DNA from: Eubacteriales bacterium
GTDB lineage: Bacteria; Bacillota; Clostridia; Oscillospirales; CAG-382
Assembly (NCBI GenBank): GCA_045600105.1
Contig: JAZRXG010000041.1
Coordinates: forward strand, 43,081-107,080
Reading direction: 5' to 3'
Length of the DNA: 64,000 bases
Shown here: one piece after another, positions 1 to 21,496 of the stretch
Layout of the letters: every line of letters starts with the position of its first letter
Numbering within the stretch: the stretch's first letter is position 1
Program-made: the position numbers and the translations under genes
The notes under the pieces: generated by a model
Database searches by the model: none
Told to the model about the DNA's origin: nothing
The model's input: only the letters and a program-made list of their open reading frames with translations

Positions 1-456
1 AACGACGGGAAGCGTGGGCTCGGTACGGCACTCGATTTCGCGGTCGGGGCAGAACGTGTTGTTTTCGGGATCAGACGTGAATACCAACACGTTCTTTTCG
101 CTGCCGAAAAGTATGATTTTTTTGTCAAAAGCCGCAAGCCCCTTTACTTCCTCGGTCTTTCCGCTGCAAAGGCAGCATTCGAGCGTGACGCAGAAATAGT
201 ATCTTATCGACACCTGATAAAAGCCCTTGTTGAACGGCACGGCTTCAAGTGCGATATTGGTATCTATTACTTCAACGTTCTTGCATCTTATGGCGTTTGC
301 TCTGTCGATAAGCTCCTGATAGCAGTCGCAGAAGCATACTCTGAGGTCTTCGAGACAGTCTTTGTCTCTCGCGGAGTCGAATATTTTGTTTACGCTGACG
401 CAGCAAAGCTCGTTGGGCTTTCCGCACAATGAACGCGCCGGCTTGTTTTCGACCAT
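1..456 (-). CDS. Cysteine-rich hypothetical protein, N-terminal 152 codons (gene runs off the left window edge)
   Basis: Stop-free minus-strand frame from ATG at 456-454 to position 1. GGAGG at 470-466 lies about 10 nt upstream. My translation starts MVENKPARSLCGKPNELCCVSVNKIF. It is absent from the ORF track because no stop lies in the window. No family recognised. Confidence 0.5.
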   Translation of the reverse strand, partial: MVENKPARSLCGKPNELCCVSVNKIFDSARDKDCLEDLRVCFCDCYQELIDRANAIRCKNVEVIDTNIALEAVPFNKGFYQVSIRYYFCVTLECCLCSGKTEEVKGLAAFDKKIILFGSEKNVLVFTSDPENNTFCPDREIECRTEPTLPVV

Positions 457-606: not shown

Positions 607-709
607 TTCTTATCAAGAGAGGCGGAGGGAACTGCCCTGTGAAGCCCGACAACCTGCGTTTGAAGTAAGGTGTCAATTCAGCGAAAGCATTGCTTTCGGC
701 AGATGAGAA
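607..709 (+). promoter_or_regulatory. SAM-I (S-box) riboswitch aptamer
   Basis: Matches remembered S-box hallmarks: TTCTTATCAAGAGAGGCGGAGGGAACTGCCCTGTGAAGCCCGACAACC ... AAGGTGTCAATTC ... GATGAGAA. P1 pairs TTCTTATC (607-614) with GATGAGAA (702-709). Located directly upstream of metK, the classic context. Confidence 0.9.
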
Positions 710-784: not shown

Positions 785-1975
785 ATGATCAAACATTATT
801 TTACATCAGAATCGGTCACCGAAGGACATCCCGATAAGATCTGCGACCAGATCTCCGACGGCGTTCTTGACGCGATCCTCAAAGAAGACCCCATGGCACG
901 CGTTGCCTGTGAGACCGCCATCACCACGGGACTCGTTCTCGTAATGGGCGAAATATCCACTTCTTCCTATGTCGACATTCCCACGATAGTCAGAAACACG
1001 ATACTCAATATCGGCTATGACTCGTCCGAAAAAGGATTTGACGCCCGTACCTGCGGCATCATCACCGCCATCGACGAGCAGTCCTCCGACATCGCTCTCG
1101 GCGTTGATAAATCGCTCGAAGCCAAAGCCGGTGAAGCCGCCGAAGACCTCGATACCGGAGCGGGAGATCAGGGTATGGTATTCGGCTACGCCTGCAGCGA
1201 AACGGCATCTCTCATGCCGCTTCCCATCTATCTTTCTCACGAACTCGCGAAAAAGCTGACCGAAGTCCGCAAAAACGGTCTTCTTTCATATCTGCGCCCC
1301 GACGGAAAGACTCAGGTGACCGTTGAATATCACGACGGCGTTCCCGCGAGAGTCGACTCTATCGTCGTTTCCTCCCAGCATTCCGCCGACGTTGAACTCG
1401 AAAAGATCAGAAAAGACATTATCGAAAACGTCATTTACAAAGTTATTCCTCCCGAAAAGAATTTCATCGACGAAGACACAAAGATATACGTCAACCCCAC
1501 CGGAAGATTCGTCATCGGCGGTCCTCAGGGCGACTCCGGACTTACCGGCAGAAAAATAATCGTCGATACCTACGGCGGATACGCCTGCCACGGCGGCGGA
1601 GCGTTCTCCGGCAAAGACCCCACCAAGGTCGACCGTTCCGCGGCATATATGGCACGTTACGTCGCAAAGAACGTAGTTGCTTCCGGCATCGCTTCCAAAT
1701 GCGAGATCCAGGTCGCTTACGCCATCGGCGTCGCGCATCCTCTTTCGGTCCGCGTCAACACCTACGGCACCGGAAGTGCCGACGACGAAAAGATCGCCGA
1801 AGCGGTCTGCAAGGTCTTTGATTTCCGTCCTGCCGCCATCATCAAAAAGCTTGACCTTCGCAAGCCCATATATCAGAAGCTTGCCGCATACGGTCATTTC
1901 GGGCGTGAAGAACTCGGCGTAAACTGGGAAAAGACCGATATGGCTGATAAGCTCAAAGAAGCGCTCTGCAAATAA
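785..1975 (+). CDS. metK: S-adenosylmethionine synthetase
   Basis: 396 aa. N-terminus [20 protein letters not shown], plus GAGDQG and [16 protein letters not shown] motifs typical of MetK. RBS GGAAAGGA upstream. Confidence 0.97.
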
Positions 1976-3689: not shown

Positions 3690-5366
3690 ATGGCTTATTT
3701 GACCGACATCGAGATCGCACAGGCGTGCAAAATGAAACACATTACGGAAATTGCCAAAACAGCTGACGTCGATGAAAAATACATCGAACAATACGGCAAT
3801 TACAAGGCAAAAATCGATCTTTCGCTTCTCAGCGAAACGAGCAAGGCGGACGGAAAGCTTATACTTGTGACCGCCATCACGCCCACCCCCGCAGGCGAAG
3901 GAAAAACCACGACTACCATTGGTCTCGCCGACGGTCTCAAAAGGATCGGCAAAAACGTTACCGTTGCGCTTCGCGAACCGTCTCTCGGTCCCGTTTTCGG
4001 CGTAAAAGGCGGAGCAGCGGGCGGCGGATACGCTCAGGTCGTCCCCATGGAAGACATCAACCTTCATTTCACGGGCGACTTCCACGCCATCGGCGCTGCC
4101 AACAACCTGCTTGCCGCAATGCTCGATAACCATATTCAGCAAGGCAATGCTCTCAACATCGATCCTCGCCGAATCACCTGGAAGCGCTGCGTGGATATGA
4201 ACGACCGCCAGCTCAGATTCATCGTCGACGGTATGGGCGGCAAAGCCAACGGCGTCCCCCGTGAAGACGGTTTCGACATCACGGTCGCAAGCGAGATAAT
4301 GGCGGTATTCTGCCTCGCAAGCTCCATCAACGACCTCAAGGAACGTCTTTCCAAGATCATTGTCGGTTACACGTATGACGACAAACCCGTCACCGCGGGC
4401 GATCTCAAAGCCGTAGGCGCTATGACCGCTCTCCTCAAGGACGCGCTCAAGCCCAACCTCGTTCAGACTCTCGAAGGCACTCCCGCGTTCGTACACGGCG
4501 GCCCGTTCGCCAACATCGCGCACGGCTGCAACTCCGTAATCGCAACCAAAATGGCTCTCAAAATGGGCGACTATACCGTTACCGAAGCAGGCTTCGGCGC
4601 AGATCTCGGTGCTGAAAAGTTTCTCGACATCAAGTGCCGTATGGCAGGTCTCAAGCCCGACGCGGTAGTCGTCGTCGCGACCGTCAGAGCGCTCAAGATG
4701 CACGGCGGACTCGCAAAAACCGAACTTGCGAACGAGAATCTCACCGCTCTTGAAAACGGTATCCCCAACCTTCTCAGACACGTTTCCAACATCAAAAACG
4801 TATACAAGCTTCCCTGCGTGGTCGCTGTCAACCGTTTCCCCACCGACACCGACAACGAGATCGAATTCATAATTTCCAAGTGCCGCGAGCTCGGCGTCAA
4901 TACAGTTCTTTCCACCGTTTGGGCTGAAGGCGGCAAGGGCGGCGAAGCACTCGCAAAAGAAGTCGTCAGACTTTGCGAAGAAGAAAAAGGCGATTTCACT
5001 TTCTCCTACGGTCTTGAAGGCACTATTGAAGAAAAGATCGAAGCTATCGTCAAAAAAATATACGGCGGATCCGGTATCTCGGTACTTCCCGCCGCAAAGA
5101 AACAGATCGAACGTCTGACCGCCCTCGGATTCGATAAGATCCCTGTCTGCATCGCAAAGACTCAGTACAGCTTCTCCGACGATCCCACCAAGCTCGGAGC
5201 TCCCGAAAACTTCACCGTTACCATAAAGAACGTAAAAGTTTCCGCAGGCGCAGGTTTCGTCGTCGTTCTTACGGGCGATATCATGACGATGCCGGGACTT
5301 CCCAAGTCTCCCGCCGCCGAAAGGATCGACGTTGACGAAAACGGACGCATAACCGGTCTGTTCTGA
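3690..5366 (+). CDS. fhs: Formate--tetrahydrofolate ligase
   Basis: 558 aa. The LTDIEIAQ N-terminus, [17 protein letters not shown]-loop region and overall length are typical of FTHFS. RBS AAAGGAG. Confidence 0.97.
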
Positions 5367-14500: not shown

Positions 14501-14768
14501 CGTCGTTTTTTCCGTCCGTGAGAACGGTCGCGGTATTGTCGCCTGTTATGGTGATCCCGCAGTCGTAAAAATACGGGCATCCGTATGCAATGTTTCCTTT
14601 ATCCACGGGTATATCCTCCGAAGCTTCAGACGTTTCCGCTTGTGATGTGACGCCGGACTGTTCGCCCGGCGTTTCCGATACTTCTCCGCCGCTTCCTCCG
14701 CATGACGCAAGGCAAAGCGAGCTGAGCAAAAGTGTCGTGACGAGCAAACGTGAAATCGCTTTTTTCAT
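11559..14768 (-). CDS. Large lipoprotein with discoidin-like domains, a DUF4434-like glycoside-hydrolase-like barrel and a CBM9-like C-terminus
   Basis: The ORF track starts at 14807. I prefer ATG at 14768 (MKKAISRLL...LASCGGSGG lipobox) with AGGAGG 7 nt upstream. The segment GMDYVVMQYTANFN...LGMEVYLGT resembles DUF4434. Domain names are from memory. Confidence 0.7.
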   Translation of the reverse strand: MKKAISRLLVTTLLLSSLCLASCGGSGGEVSETPGEQSGVTSQAETSEASEDIPVDKGNIAYGCPYFYDCGITITGDNTATVLTDGKNDASVTLAHAFDKDGKGYELSFVDWNSSPRKEKLVNDCAAISVDLGFMADVTKFAVTFEQYSGKECEIFYSTDGYNYSFYAGKMGEYSGNVLSVDIAFTAKGIMFVFPLDAGEEIKISDIAVYGTKSAEKILVSKGAKYSYDGKGSTKYPDENGTKLTDGVSFDGVSEDTITVINGSVKDDLTGKTGAVLTLDLGEIKNVSELYVKAYRPARTSVTLPDKIDVRYSSDGENWTDFGQSFLRSTDGQKGSACNVYCVTRNHTVKARYIRIYDYISGTFLTDEVYVYGAENEVSEPDYGFINRKNQFSNSNVAAFSKASLNGTDSKTLVDMTFSSSVKCADGRNTLEITASSECKAICGVTLTGKKCTADNVVVKVDGKEATGITTYKTEVGSETNFNIYFDALPGSKVTVEFDSDTKTSLTEVSIYEGRAQLPIVRGGFFQMPTGGNGGGASSENSDYSWYLMLKGMKDLGMDYVVMQYTANFNAKTTLVNGENALKAGFRYVGGYGSADVYEAILTAADKLGMEVYLGTIHDSDFNSPITNKPFYYDIVEASKPVIKDIYEKYSHHESFAGYYLSDEECDQWLNYNGGVEAGRIVYKGQSDYIHEIAPDAKVMIAPAIWRSGDAVKGADNLYRLIAPDNDGERPVVDIVAAQDCLGRTSELTVPKNTYDSFNTYCTEWAKAVRRAGAEFWHDAEVFEQIYTSKRYDELVKTLGIEAKLSGTIIVFDIPHYFTQYPVTPVNNEKAYYKTRIMRDYIRYYSTFASLDKAGDDADSPVVINDDGRVVERSNGNQNVDPVKHDTKYNEGFLKKKTITINDVTSLDYKAFQAGNKAGTPEFALCYDDNDLYIVIKTNDETASYGKGQWWEGKDDLVQIWMTADGTTVGDVSQSDYGIRFYAHRQSKGWANGGEGSDKIKLDLFNVESVDDYVLVTVPFDAIGIKTPESGNGGAIGVKIQYIDGADSTWASTNGSNDRSVPSTSLFSY

Positions 14769-14892
14769 AGACGCACCTCCTGATTTTATGATTATATAAT
14801 ACCACAAAATATCAAAATGTCAATGACGAGGTTCGAGAAAGTAGCGAAACCGTCTTGACAAAACGCATCCACGGTGGTATTATATACAAGTC

Positions 14893-14966
14893 GCAGGCGT
14901 AGTTTAGTGGTAGAATTTCAGCTTCCCAAGCTGACTGTGCGGGTCCGATTCCCGTCGCCTGCTCCA
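14893..14966 (+). tRNA. tRNA-Gly (anticodon CCC)
   Basis: Hand-folded cloverleaf. Acceptor GCAGGCG/CGCCTGC, anticodon stem TCAGC/GCTGA with loop TTCCCAA, T stem GCGGG/CCCGT, discriminator T and encoded CCA. The T-loop reads TCCGATT rather than the usual TTCGATT. Confidence 0.88.
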
Positions 14967-15059
14967 ATAAAAATGCGCTTGTATTGAAACGGTGTTCTAA
15001 AGGACAGTTACAAAGTACAAATGCCTCATAAGTGGTGAGTAAGTGCGCACTTATTAAAG

Positions 15060-15095
15060 AAACAGACTGATAAATCAAAATATCAGTCTGTTTTT
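15060..15095 (+). terminator. Intrinsic terminator downstream of tRNA-Gly
   Basis: AACAGACTGATA (15061-15072) / TATCAGTCTGTT (15081-15092), followed by a T-run ending at 15095. Confidence 0.7.
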
Positions 15096-15132
15096 AGTTT
15101 TCAGCAGGTGTTTATTTCGACATAGCATTTTA

Positions 15133-15306
15133 GTGATGTTTGCCCTGACGGGCAAGTGATGTTGTTCGCTATGCTCACAGTGATGTTTTTGCTTCGCAAA
15201 AGTGATGTGATGTGTTCCACTCACGCGCCGTCGAGGCGCACATCACTCGCCACAAGCGAACATCACGCCGTAAGGTACATCACGTTCCACGCAGTGGAAC
15301 ACATCG
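15133..15306. repeat. Mirror-ordered heptamer/hairpin array (4x GTGATGT, apical hairpin, 3x ACATCAC plus ACATCG)
   Basis: GTGATGT at 15133, 15156, 15180 and 15202. ACATCAC at 15240, 15260 and 15277, and ACATCG at 15301. Each interval holds a distinct short stem-loop. Central hairpin GCGCC-GTCGA-GGCGC at 15225-15239. Confidence 0.85.
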
Positions 15307-15355
15307 TTCGCCGAGTGTCCTTAAGAGCACTCGGCGTTTGCAAGTGCTTTTTTGA

Positions 15356-15415
15356 ATGATGTTTGCCCTTTCGGGCAAATGATGTACGCTTCGCGTATGA
15401 TGCTGCCTTCGGCAA
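15356..15415. repeat. Second block of three ATGATG(T)+hairpin units
   Basis: ATGATGT at 15356 and 15379, and ATGATG at 15397. These are followed by TTGCCC-TTTC-GGGCAA, ACGC-TTC-GCGT and TGCC-TTC-GGCA. 15357-15385 matches 15134-15162 at 26 of 29 positions. Confidence 0.8.
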
Positions 15416-15420
15416 AGAGA

Positions 15421-15452
15421 CTCCCACTGCCCTATTCAAACGGCAGTGGGAG
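15421..15452 (-). terminator. Probable terminator hairpin of the polyamine operon
   Basis: Perfect 11-bp stem CTCCCACTGCC (15421-15431) / GGCAGTGGGAG (15442-15452), 13 nt beyond the stop of the last operon gene. The U-tract on the minus strand is weak (TCTCTTT). Confidence 0.5.
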
Positions 15453-15464
15453 TTTATATATATA

Positions 15465-16679
15465 TCAATTCTTCTGTTTTTTGCCGAGACGATTTTTGAA
15501 ATCCTGATATCCGAAATCCGTCAGCTTTTTCAGTTCCCCGGATTCCGTTCGTAACCAAATGTCCGGAAGCTGCATTCCGTTGAATGTGTTGTTTTTACAG
15601 GTCGTATAAATCGCCATATCTCCGAATGTCAAAACCTTTCCTTCCTTCAAAGGCGCATCAAAGCTGTAATCGCCGATCACATCCCCGGACAGACAGGTAG
15701 GTCCGCCCAGACGATAGCAATATGGTTTTTCGCCGTCTTCTCCGGTTCCGAAGAGCGGCGGTCGATACGGCATTTCCAAAACATCCGGCGTATGGCAGGC
15801 GGCACTCATATCCAGAATCGCAAGCTGTATATTGCCGTTTTTCGGAAAGTCGAGTACCCGCGTGACGAGGTATCCCGCATTCAGTGCCCATGCCTCACCG
15901 GGTTCCAGATATACTTCCGTTCCCCATTTTTCCCGTGCGTAACGGATGCAGCGTTCCAGTCTCGGAATGTCATAGCCCGGACGTGTAATGTGATGGCCTC
16001 CACCGAAATTCACCCATTTCAGACCGGGGAGAATATCGCCGAACTTATCCTCAACGGCATACAGCGTGGTTTCCAATGCATCGGAATCCTGCTCGCACAG
16101 CGTATGGAAATGCAGACCGTCCAGAAGGGCGCACAATTCACCCGTCATGGACTCATTCCACTGCTGACGTGTCGTTCCGAGACGGCTGCCGGGCGCGCAG
16201 GGGTCATATATATCATGTCCCTCCTGCGTGGAGCATTCCGGATTGATGCGCAGACCAACTGATTTTCCCGCAGCCTTTGCCAAGGCGCCGAATTTTTCAA
16301 GCTGTCGGGGAGAATTGAATACGATATGATCGGCATACCGCAAAAGCTCGCCGAAATCCTGTTCTCGGTAGGCGGCACAGAAGACATGTACCTCTTTTCC
16401 GGGCATTTCTTCCGCGCCGAGATGTGCTTCAAAAAGACCGCTTGCCTCGGTGCCGGTCAGATAAGGGGAAAGCACAGGATAGAGGTCGAAATTGGAAAAA
16501 GCCTTCTGCGCGAGGAGGAATCTGGCGCCGGTTCGCTTCGCCGTTTCGGAAATCAGTTCTCCGTTGCGGCGAAGCTTTGCTTCATCCAGAATATACGCAG
16601 GTGTCGGAATGCCGCGAAAAAGCTCTGACGGATCTTTGCCGTCGAGTGATGCAAAAGGCGCGCGATGATCTGCAGCCAT
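15465..16679 (-). CDS. nspC: Carboxynorspermidine/carboxyspermidine decarboxylase
   Basis: 404 aa. The N-terminal IPTPAYILDEAKLRRN and overall alanine-racemase-fold PLP decarboxylase pattern match remembered CANSDC sequences. Its start overlaps the upstream stop by 1 nt. Confidence 0.88.
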   Translation of the reverse strand: MAADHRAPFASLDGKDPSELFRGIPTPAYILDEAKLRRNGELISETAKRTGARFLLAQKAFSNFDLYPVLSPYLTGTEASGLFEAHLGAEEMPGKEVHVFCAAYREQDFGELLRYADHIVFNSPRQLEKFGALAKAAGKSVGLRINPECSTQEGHDIYDPCAPGSRLGTTRQQWNESMTGELCALLDGLHFHTLCEQDSDALETTLYAVEDKFGDILPGLKWVNFGGGHHITRPGYDIPRLERCIRYAREKWGTEVYLEPGEAWALNAGYLVTRVLDFPKNGNIQLAILDMSAACHTPDVLEMPYRPPLFGTGEDGEKPYCYRLGGPTCLSGDVIGDYSFDAPLKEGKVLTFGDMAIYTTCKNNTFNGMQLPDIWLRTESGELKKLTDFGYQDFKNRLGKKQKN

Positions 16680-21192: not shown

Positions 21193-21496
21193 TGTATCAA
21201 CTACAAAACACACTCCCACCATAATAATATGGGAGACTTTCGTATTGTACGGGATTTTCAGAGTCTATATAGCAATAACTTTTACTACTCTTATTGACCG
21301 TTTCACAAGTTTGTGCTTTTAACACCGGTTTTAAGTAACCAACTCATAAAATTTGCGCTTCTAACGCAATCAACAAGGCATTACGCCATTCGGCATTGGA
21401 CCCGGCTGTCCGTATGGCCTCGATCCTCAAGGAGGATGGTCCGTGAAATTGCTTGAATAGATACTCGCATATAACCCGTATCGATTTTCTATTCCT
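21193..21496 (-). promoter_or_regulatory. Long structured 5' leader of the polyamine operon (unassigned cis-regulatory RNA candidate)
   Basis: About 300 nt lie between the predicted TSS and the leader terminator with no credible CDS. Several local hairpins are present (ATCCTC/GAGGAT, TTGCG/CGCAA, CAATAA/TTATTG, CTCCCA/TGGGAG). Confidence 0.4.

Follow-up and report, generated by a model that had tools for sequence, protein, structure and literature searches.

The window analysed here is the whole 64-kb stretch of contig JAZRXG010000041.1 from a Eubacteriales bacterium. Between a tRNA-Gly gene and the 3' end of a polyamine operon it carries, at 15133-15307 of the plus strand, a mirrored array of short repeated heptamers separated by hairpins. 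Comparison with related sequences leaves us very confident that this is a complete member, with GUGAUGU linkers, of a Gut-1-type family of gut and rumen Clostridia.

The element and its locus

Coordinates are from direct reading of the flagged stretch within 14700-15800 of the window. The heptamers and hairpins of the original prediction all lie where it placed them, including the weak hairpin at 15163-15179, and to the GTGATGT copies at 15133, 15156, 15180 and 15202 we add a fifth, overlapping copy at 15207. The reverse complement ACATCAC is at 15240, 15260 and 15277, with ACATCG at 15301. The array spans about 175 nt, and each spacer between the heptamers, which we call linkers, is a short inverted repeat.

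Read along the plus strand, the forward half consists of linker L1 (GTGATGT, 15133-15139), hairpin hp1 (TTGCCC-TGAC-GGGCAA, 15140-15155), L2 (15156-15162), hp2 (15163-15179), which is weak and interrupted in the window copy, L3 (15180-15186), hp3 (TTTTGC-TTC-GCAAAA, 15187-15201) and L4 (15202-15208). Then follows at 15209-15220 a duplicated linker GATGT plus a segment X1 (GTTCCAC), which together make the 5' strand of a long-range helix, helix B, and which are conserved as GAAATAAATCC in the canonical elements described below. A conserved TCAC precedes the centre hairpin hpC (GCGCC-GTCGA-GGCGC, 15225-15239). The reverse half comprises L1' (ACATCAC, 15240-15246), hpa (TCGC-CACAA-GCGA, 15247-15259), L2' (15260-15266), hpb (GCC-GTAA-GGT, 15267-15276), with a G.U pair and a GNRA loop on the plus strand, L3' (15277-15283), hpX (GTTCCAC-GCA-GTGGAAC, or X2-GCA-X', 15284-15300), the 3' strand of which can pair alternatively with X1 as helix B, and the last linker L4' (ACATCGT, 15301-15307). 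The CGT end of L4' recurs in most copies of the window type and most canonical copies. Covariation is seen for hp1, hp3, hpa and hpX, and hp1 is identical to that of one metagenome copy, L473.

The array exceeds the span that was flagged. It is followed on the plus strand by a terminator-like hairpin (15309-15336) and T-run (15348-15353), read directly, that correspond to the bidirectional terminator found 3' of L4' in relatives, and then by a second, partial array of three hairpins at 15356-15414 on the minus strand. This aligns to the reverse-half part of covariance model R1 (described below; 23.8 bits, E 6e-5, on the minus strand) and is thus a solo half copy, tail-to-tail with the full copy, the two having the terminator in common; Rfam Gut-1 gives it 34.4 bits on the plus strand. 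Its plus-strand linkers are ATGATGT, ATGATGT and ATGATGC with three small hairpins, and in minus-strand order it reads hairpin C(GAA)G-GCATCAT, hairpin C(GAA)G-ACATCAT, hairpin C(GAAA)G-ACATCAT.

Over-representation of the heptamer is clear in the window as a whole: GTGATGT occurs 18 times on the two strands, against 5.09 +/- 2.17 in shuffles (largest 12), and eight of the 18 copies fall within 15133-15283. In folding of both strands against shuffles, proposed as a check on the original prediction, the 177-nt core was better than all 200 shuffles on each strand (z -4.9 for plus-strand RNA, -5.0 for minus-strand RNA and -6.3 for DNA).

Relationship to Gut-1 and extent of the family

The array had been thought not to belong to any named RNA family, and this needs correction. 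Rfam reports nothing for the element at gathering thresholds, but with E-value reporting cmscan gives sub-threshold matches to Gut-1 (RF01706, gathering threshold 50 bits) at 15354-15426 (plus strand, 34.4 bits), 15131-15213 (plus, 33.1 bits) and 15213-15287 (minus, 23.1 bits), and we regard the element as a relative of that family. Three hairpins and four linkers of the window are aligned over Gut-1 model positions 1-77. The window linkers GUGAUGU and AUGAUGU differ from the Gut-1 consensus (G)UGAAAU and fit the wider RUGAWRU of the subfamilies. Gut-1 was described by Weinberg et al. (2010) from human-gut environmental sequence only, with 43 representatives; it was rated as certainly RNA and not cis-regulatory, and no function, gene association or cultivated host was given (PMC2864571).

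Viral contigs were scanned first for the canonical linker and next for GTGAAATGAAATAAATC, a sequence of the centre, and 11 canonical full-length elements were recovered. Their forward half has four GUGAAAU linkers with hairpins of 16-18 nt between them, then a duplicated linker and the centre hairpin, and their reverse half has three AUUUCAC linkers with 11-13 nt hairpins, a last hairpin of 16-18 nt, AUUUCG and a strong terminator. Against these elements the Gut-1 model scores 68-77 bits for the reverse half, read on the opposite strand, and 36-51 bits for the forward half. The motif as catalogued therefore covers one half of a larger element. In the Stockholm alignment of the Weinberg authors the flanks include the mirrored half, a fourth linker type (GUGAUAU/AUAUCAC), and a tRNA and terminator upstream.

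A metagenome scan with the pattern GTGATGT-N-GTGATGTGATGT-N-ACATCAC returned 50 loci, 12 of them GATGT microsatellites; in the other 38 are 40 genuine GUGAUGU copies with the same part order and spacing as in the window. Forward linker spacings in the GUGAUGU copies are about 22-25, 20-27 and 24-26 nt and reverse spacings 18, 18 and 24-25 nt; the centre is GATGT, X1, (C)TCAC and a hairpin, and the last linker is mostly ACATCGT, with the terminator next. The window copy has all the ordered parts, from L1-hp-L2-hp-L3-hp-L4 through to a last linker ending in CGT (alignment A1; 41 copies parsed). Model R1 was built from nine canonical GUGAAAU elements only, with no GUGAUGU copies included, and it finds 15133-15307 on the plus strand across model positions 1-176 with 71.4 bits (E ~5e-18).

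Another linker type is seen at L151, a locus in a metagenome-assembled genome of Clostridia that was reached through its nspC gene, where four copies of ATGAAGT with hairpins are followed by a centre and then by hairpins with four copies of ACTTCAT. The linker types seen, in each case matched between the two halves, are thus GUGAUGU/ACAUCAC (window), GUGAAAU/AUUUCAC, GUGAUAU/AUAUCAC and AUGAAGU/ACUUCAU (L151). The defining grammar of the whole family is a conserved linker and a variable self-complementary insert. The original prediction had seen this in the single copy, and had described it as opposite to the logic of REP/BIME (repetitive extragenic palindromes and bacterial interspersed mosaic elements) and of CRISPR; the description holds, the hairpins differing while the linkers are invariant and the repeat being 7 nt.

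Arrays without a mirrored half also exist. A 4.5-kb contig from IMG/VR (L278) has direct-only Gut-1-like arrays at 1514-1588, 2618-2695, 2903-2979 and 4307-4354; at least two of them come directly after the ends of open reading frames (ORFs), and one scores 59 bits, above the Rfam threshold.

Conserved structure

Alignment A1, as used for pairing and RNAalifold, has 30 sequences. In the local hairpins 88.3% of cells are paired, and 33 of the 37 pairs have changed on both sides; none of 500 shuffles reaches the covariation score, the percentage paired or the number of double-changed pairs, and registers that were slid give 31-46% paired. RNAalifold, given no hint, returned as its consensus L1:L4', L2:L3', L3:L2' and L4:L1' together with the local hairpins, which is the mirror-order pairing of the original prediction. 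The mirror linker pairs are 96.9% paired, with eight double-changed pairs, all due to the subfamily switch.

The competing 12-bp pairing that had been noted in the window, helix B (15209-15220 with 15294-15305), is likewise conserved, being 95.5% paired with double changes at seven of its 12 pairs; two positions show three types of pair. Changes in X1 go with changes in X2, as with GTTTCGC in L464, and X', the 3' strand of the last hairpin, has a choice between the local partner X2 and X1 in the centre, the two pairings being mutually exclusive. It follows that two alternative conformers are conserved. A parS-like reading of GTTCCAC-GCA-GTGGAAC was considered and rejected, as GTTCCGC is the form in most relatives and the palindrome is interrupted by the 3-nt insert.

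The linkers behave differently from the hairpins. Within one element they are the same motif, and family-wide they are confined to RUGAWRU/AYWUCAY. Where a linker deviates, the change is mostly uncompensated in its mirror partner (L3 of L449, L2' of L302, and linkers of L460 and L465), and in L467 and L482 the variant L1 GTGAAGT accompanies a variant L1', ACTTCA(C/T), which is not its mirror partner. A single motif throughout, with uncompensated deviants, means that structure alone is insufficient and that either a sequence-reading partner or concerted evolution is needed. The suggestion that there is selection on structure therefore stands for the hairpins but does not account for the linkers, which on this evidence behave as copies of a putative recognition motif and not as four independently evolving helices.

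Copies are also mosaic, the window and L473 sharing hp1 and the centre and not the other hairpins. A 3.9-kb contig (L464) has inverted copies at 1-200 (minus strand) and 1509-1689 (plus strand) flanking a gene for a four-helix-bundle (4HB) protein of the kind described below. The two copies are identical from centre to terminator, and their forward-half hairpins differ yet are compensated, which suggests cassette-like recombination at the repeated linkers.

Genomic context

In 24 of the 40 metagenomic copies the 3' end of a tRNA gene is 23-90 nt past the tail, always convergent and with many isoacceptors represented; eight of the other 16 run into the end of the contig. Between the tail and the convergent tRNA is a hairpin with an A-run and a T-run, that is, a bidirectional terminator. 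At the other end a near-consensus promoter (TTTACA-17-TATAAT) is often present 0-5 nt from L1 on the opposite strand, firing outward, with its -35 hexamer directly adjoining L1; the strict form is found in 11 of 36 copies. The sequences 'attatagcat' and 'ttgtaaag', at first considered as a promoter for the element, are the -10 and -35 boxes of this opposite-strand promoter, which fires away from the element, and that assignment was dropped.

The window copy is atypical in that its tRNA is at the head, on the same strand and 160 nt away, and it has no outward TTTACA-17-TATAAT promoter. This tRNA-Gly(CCC) gene (14893-14966, plus strand; ARAGORN, and 62.6 bits with Rfam) has a sigma70-like promoter at 14855-14883 by promoter scan, and its unit is closed at 15060-15099 (plus strand) by a terminator-like hairpin and T-run, read directly as aaacagactgata / tatcagtctgttt and then ttttagtttt. 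Terminator-like hairpins thus flank the element on both sides. The internal hairpins of the array have a linker and no T-run directly after them, and the sole match inside the array in a scan for intrinsic terminators is a chance overlap. In the roughly 95 nt that separate the tRNA-Gly 3' end from the terminator hairpin of this gene (14967-15059, plus strand) we recognised nothing; this segment could be a trailer or a small RNA.

On the far side a long hairpin (15420-15453) lies between the half copy and the stop codon, at 15465, of a minus-strand nspC-like gene, and is probably the terminator of the polyamine operon. The original prediction drew attention to this operon, and the proximity has not proved to be a conserved link. 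No array follows the gene in the closest relatives of nspC (80-84% identity), and among 82 nspC loci an array is found only at L151, which is about the background rate; a role as a conserved part of the polyamine operon is rejected. On the 5' side of the same minus-strand cluster ending at 15465 is an SpF59/ldcC RNA motif (RF02440) at 21390-21442 (minus strand, 68.3 bits), which may be its leader. Elsewhere in the window there is an SAM (S-box) riboswitch at 607-709 (plus strand), with 81.4 bits, above the Rfam threshold.

We also considered a phage- or plasmid-borne element and rejected it, since neither the 50,697 phage records nor the 72,556 plasmid records contain a genuine match; the IMG/VR matches sit at provirus edges beside tRNA genes. 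When viral contigs were scanned for GTGATGT or ATGAAGT in three spaced copies, only coding or tandem repeats came up, none with dissimilar hairpin spacers. Some canonical copies do adjoin genes of mobile elements. In L452 (about 4090-4250) a canonical element ends exactly at the centre, with the forward half missing, beside a gene for a 518-aa serine recombinase, and the centre may have been used there as an integration site. At the L1 end of the elements in L295, L302, L243, L248 and L313 an IS256-family transposase gene fragment adjoins the element (by eye), and the first 'hairpin' at that end is not a hairpin.

The adjacent PF05635/TIGR02436 gene

Searching from the DNA side, we found a gene for a 4HB protein of about 119 aa, of family PF05635/TIGR02436, directly beside the element at 12 GUGAUGU loci and one canonical GUGAAAU locus, with the start of the gene 50-62 nt from L1 in ten of the GUGAUGU loci by one count and, by another, in the nine copies for which the distance was measured. 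A search that started from the protein found the element immediately upstream of the gene in all seven loci inspected. The proteins fall into clades that follow the linker type: clade A is always with GUGAUGU and clade B always with GUGAAAU, the two being 57% identical, and a truncated gene of a third clade is beside a GUGAUAU half element. Two or even three linker types can be found on one contig (two in each of L459 and L490). At 9600-9900 of L490 there are a tRNA-Leu gene, a terminator and a GUUAUAU/GUGAUAU half element fused to the 5'-truncated third-clade gene, and the same contig carries a complete GUGAUGU element with a clade A gene.

The closest solved homologue of the protein is 2RLD, deposited with five chains, and the number of forward-sense linker copies in an element is also five (L1-L4 and the duplicate). 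PADLOC has no match for the protein. A classification of Avd, the protein of diversity-generating retroelements (DGRs), and PF05635 as HEPN proteins was dropped, as neither is mentioned in the HEPN survey. Avd itself forms a barrel of five protomers, is highly basic and acts together with an RNA (PMC6182149).

There are thousands of near-identical (87-97%) 4HB proteins (P0121-P0360), mostly on contigs of 0.5-2 kb, and assemblies seem to break at these loci, as would be expected of multi-copy repeats beside tRNA genes. The names attached to the 4HB proteins indicate carriers among the Oscillospiraceae and Ruminococcaceae. A second, different 4HB gene with mirrored heptamers is present in L147 (560-930), where a distant PF05635 homologue (E 1.6e-4) is followed at once by four tandem TAGGCAG heptamers and, about 110 nt on, by many reverse complements (CTACTGC/CTGCCTA) up to the ribosome-binding site of the next gene, with no hairpin spacers.

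Interpretation and alternatives

The reading we favour, tentatively and with somewhat less than even confidence, is that the element folds into a platform and that a partner, for which the co-varying 4HB protein is the best candidate, reads its repeated linkers. It would act as a folded single strand, most simply as RNA, made from a weak promoter of its own or by read-through at a transcription-unit boundary. Each spacer would form its own mini-hairpin, and the four forward linkers would zip onto the four reverse linkers in mirror order to give a rod of identical 7-bp helices with four-way junctions between them, while the conserved alternative 12-bp helix, which joins the centre to the 3' end, would provide a second conformer. 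Given that there is one motif per element and that linker type tracks 4HB clade, we propose that the linkers, either single-stranded or as a helix-junction module, would be read by a sequence-specific partner, for which the best candidate is the small, probably pentameric and distantly Avd-like PF05635/TIGR02436 protein. On this view the window would hold a solo copy, either a relic or one whose protein is supplied in trans.

A fuller version, which we put forward as rather unlikely in all its parts, is that the mirrored ladders are the cognate ligands of PF05635/TIGR02436 proteins, with linkers read in a clade-specific way, one protomer of the pentamer per unit, the module homing to the 3' flanks of stable-RNA genes and the window copy being a solo site whose protein is supplied in trans. 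If true, the module would be to tRNA genes what the ORF-bearing intervening sequences are to rRNA, and it would be related to the Avd-RNA complex, though without a retroelement.

Several observations weigh against a folded platform with a 4HB partner. The single-sequence minimum-free-energy fold of the window copy pairs L1 with L3', the register of pairing being ambiguous, and the deviant linkers described above are mostly uncompensated. We found no convincing promoter for the element itself. There is no PF05635 ORF in the 64-kb window, and many copies of the element have no 4HB gene nearby. Where the gene is present, the outward promoter lies between it and the element and fires away from the element, so the two are not one transcript. 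The 4HB protein resembles Avd only weakly, its score with the Avd model being 21 bits where the cut-off is 80, and the correlation of clade with linker type could come from simple co-inheritance of neighbours.

The evidence on strand is a further difficulty. Summed hairpin energies are nearly the same on the two strands, at -153 and -152 kcal/mol for the forward half and -109 and -118 kcal/mol for the reverse half. In the reverse half the plus-strand loops are C(GAA)G in 29 of 58 hairpins, also C(AAA)G and C(GCA)G, with GNRA/GNNA tetraloops in the last hairpin, and in the forward half they are the complements, C(TTC)G, C(TTGC)G and C(TTAC)G. Favourable GNA/GNRA loops thus occur in the reverse half when the plus strand is read and in the forward half when the minus strand is read, which is not what a single-transcript model predicts. 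Non-canonical appositions follow suit, with nine A.C and two G.T on the plus strand in the forward-half hairpins and two G.T and no A.C in the reverse half; the L1:L4' helix has a conserved G.U on the plus strand. Loops and appositions therefore agree in favouring a different strand for each half, each half being 'right' where it is read as hairpin then ACAUCAC, that is, as the 3' half of the strand read. This pattern fits an element that works from either side, or single-stranded DNA exposed outward from the centre, and it is not a particularly good fit to a single transcript or to the inward orientation of the Rfam model. GNA triloops closed by C-G, as in mini-hairpins of the d(GCGAAGC) type, are extraordinarily stable in DNA, and RNA hairpins under selection usually use tetraloops.

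The alternative that survives best, though we still think it unlikely, is a boundary element of the REP/BIME, BOX or Correia kind with no partner, in which a stable rod that can be read either way would insulate transcription units, back up termination or block 3' exonucleases, with the uniformity of the linkers coming from concerted evolution and cassette shuffling at the repeated 7-mers. The element is always between transcription units, the 24 tails near a convergent tRNA lie across an A-run/T-run hairpin from it, and a strong promoter often begins right at the head. Its orientation to neighbours is not fixed, as comparison of the window copy with a typical one makes plain, and the grammar and stability are the same on both strands, with GNA/GNRA loops in the 3' half for each reading direction. 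Mosaic copies (the window and L473, and the two L464 copies, which share only the right half) and the mostly very short contigs with 4HB genes, as expected of repeats, are also in its favour. However, pure structure leaves the confinement of linkers to RUGAWRU unexplained, and likewise the presence side by side on one contig of distinct linker types, each with its own 4HB clade. The copies are not near-identical, unlike recent copies of miniature inverted-repeat transposable elements, and no target-site duplication or transposase was identified.

An element that works at the level of DNA is the next alternative, and we consider it doubtful. The heptamers would be sites for a protein on double-stranded DNA, in an operator or assembly array by the -35, or the hairpins would form in single-stranded DNA for priming, recombination or mobility, each half folding on the strand exposed as the duplex opens outward from the centre. 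The favourable loops of the two halves being on different strands, the G.T/A.C counts that agree with them and the stability of GNA triloops in DNA all speak for this alternative, as do the z of -6.3 for the DNA fold and the position of L1 within 0-5 nt of a -35 hexamer; direct repeats in inverted sets, with a spacing of about two turns of the helix, are typically seen where proteins bind DNA in arrays. But sites on double-stranded DNA give no reason for a compensated hairpin in every spacer, and cruciforms will not form from stems of only 3-7 bp. In RNA, too, GNRA loops are good loops, no nuclease, relaxase or transposase is linked to the element, and it is absent from the curated phage and plasmid collections, which are the home of single-stranded origins and oriT.

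It is improbable that the element is two convergent small RNAs, each half being an independent Gut-1 RNA in the inward, GUGAUGU-hairpin sense and the complementarity a by-product of inverted duplication. The Rfam model does match each half on its own strand, and solo halves exist (window 15356-15414, the L278 arrays and L452). Against this, no inward promoters or central terminators were seen, and the inward loops (UUC, UUGC and UUAC) and A.C appositions make it the unfavourable reading. The asymmetric centre, with its duplicated linker and X1/X2/X' triple, is conserved as one unit, and the full-length covariance model gives 71 bits where half models give 33. Finally, overlapping mini-ORFs, with RUGA as a start codon overlapping a UGA stop and peptides of 7-8 codons made by termination-reinitiation, are extremely improbable and were rejected on linker spacings, for although the spacings in the Rfam consensus and L151 are all 2 mod 3, giving MK(Y/F)... 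peptides, and about ten of the 15 first examined fit, those of the window (23, 24, 22), L290 (24, 24, 24) and most metagenomic copies do not, there are no Shine-Dalgarno sequences and the hairpins covary as structure and not as codons.

Significance

With this locus and its relatives, the catalogued Gut-1 motif becomes half of a larger mirrored element, and the family is seen to reach well beyond what the Rfam model picks up, with four linker types or more. Its position in the genome is a defined one (tRNA terminator, element, promoter), and it is accompanied by a particular small protein, the clade of which follows the linker type. Proteins of PF05635/TIGR02436 were discovered inside rRNA intervening sequences and to our knowledge have had no explanation since, and two orphan families, Gut-1 and PF05635/TIGR02436, now become one pair that is directly testable. 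The predicted fold, in which identical 7-bp helices alternate with linker-free four-way junctions, would be an unusual natural architecture for RNA or DNA.

Comparison with known systems

What the window element has in common with Gut-1 is a series of short hairpins of variable sequence with a conserved linker of 7 nt between them. Gut-1 in Rfam is a three-hairpin motif of 77 nt on one strand, whereas the present unit is about 175 nt and mirrored, and has in addition a centre with a duplicated linker, an alternative long-range helix and a terminator.

REP/BIME, BOX and Correia repeats are multi-copy, modular and hairpin-forming, occur at gene ends in either orientation, often near terminators, and some have outward promoters. 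In these it is the palindrome that is conserved and the linkers that vary; in the present family the linkers are conserved and every hairpin has a different sequence. No REP-associated tyrosine transposase (RAYT), other transposase or target duplication was seen, the window genome being represented by 64 kb. CRISPR arrays differ in that the repeat here is 7 nt and the spacers are 10-17 nt and self-complementary, and the sole CRISPR-DR match in the Rfam scan is at 17.9 bits (E 6.6).

ToxI/ToxN resembles the present arrangement in having short repeated units immediately upstream of the gene for a small oligomeric protein, with the number of repeats about that of the oligomer order. ToxI has identical 36-nt repeats on one strand, transcribed with the toxin and with a terminator between, whereas here the units differ and are mirrored, a promoter separates array from gene, and the protein has no known nuclease fold. 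The intervening sequences in 23S rRNA of Leptospira and Coxiella likewise have a PF05635 protein encoded with a stem-forming insert in or beside a stable-RNA gene. They differ from the present module, which is past the tRNA terminator, has its ORF outside the structured element and under its own promoter, and lacks a continuous stem of the RNase III type.

For DGRs, neither a reverse transcriptase nor template and variable repeats were found at any locus, the called genes (L506-L536) being without reverse transcriptase. The likeness is in the pairing of a small 4HB protein with a structured RNA encoded next to it, as for Avd (PMC6182149), the neighbour here being a TIGR02436/PF05635 protein and the candidate nucleic-acid partner an array of hairpins and linkers.

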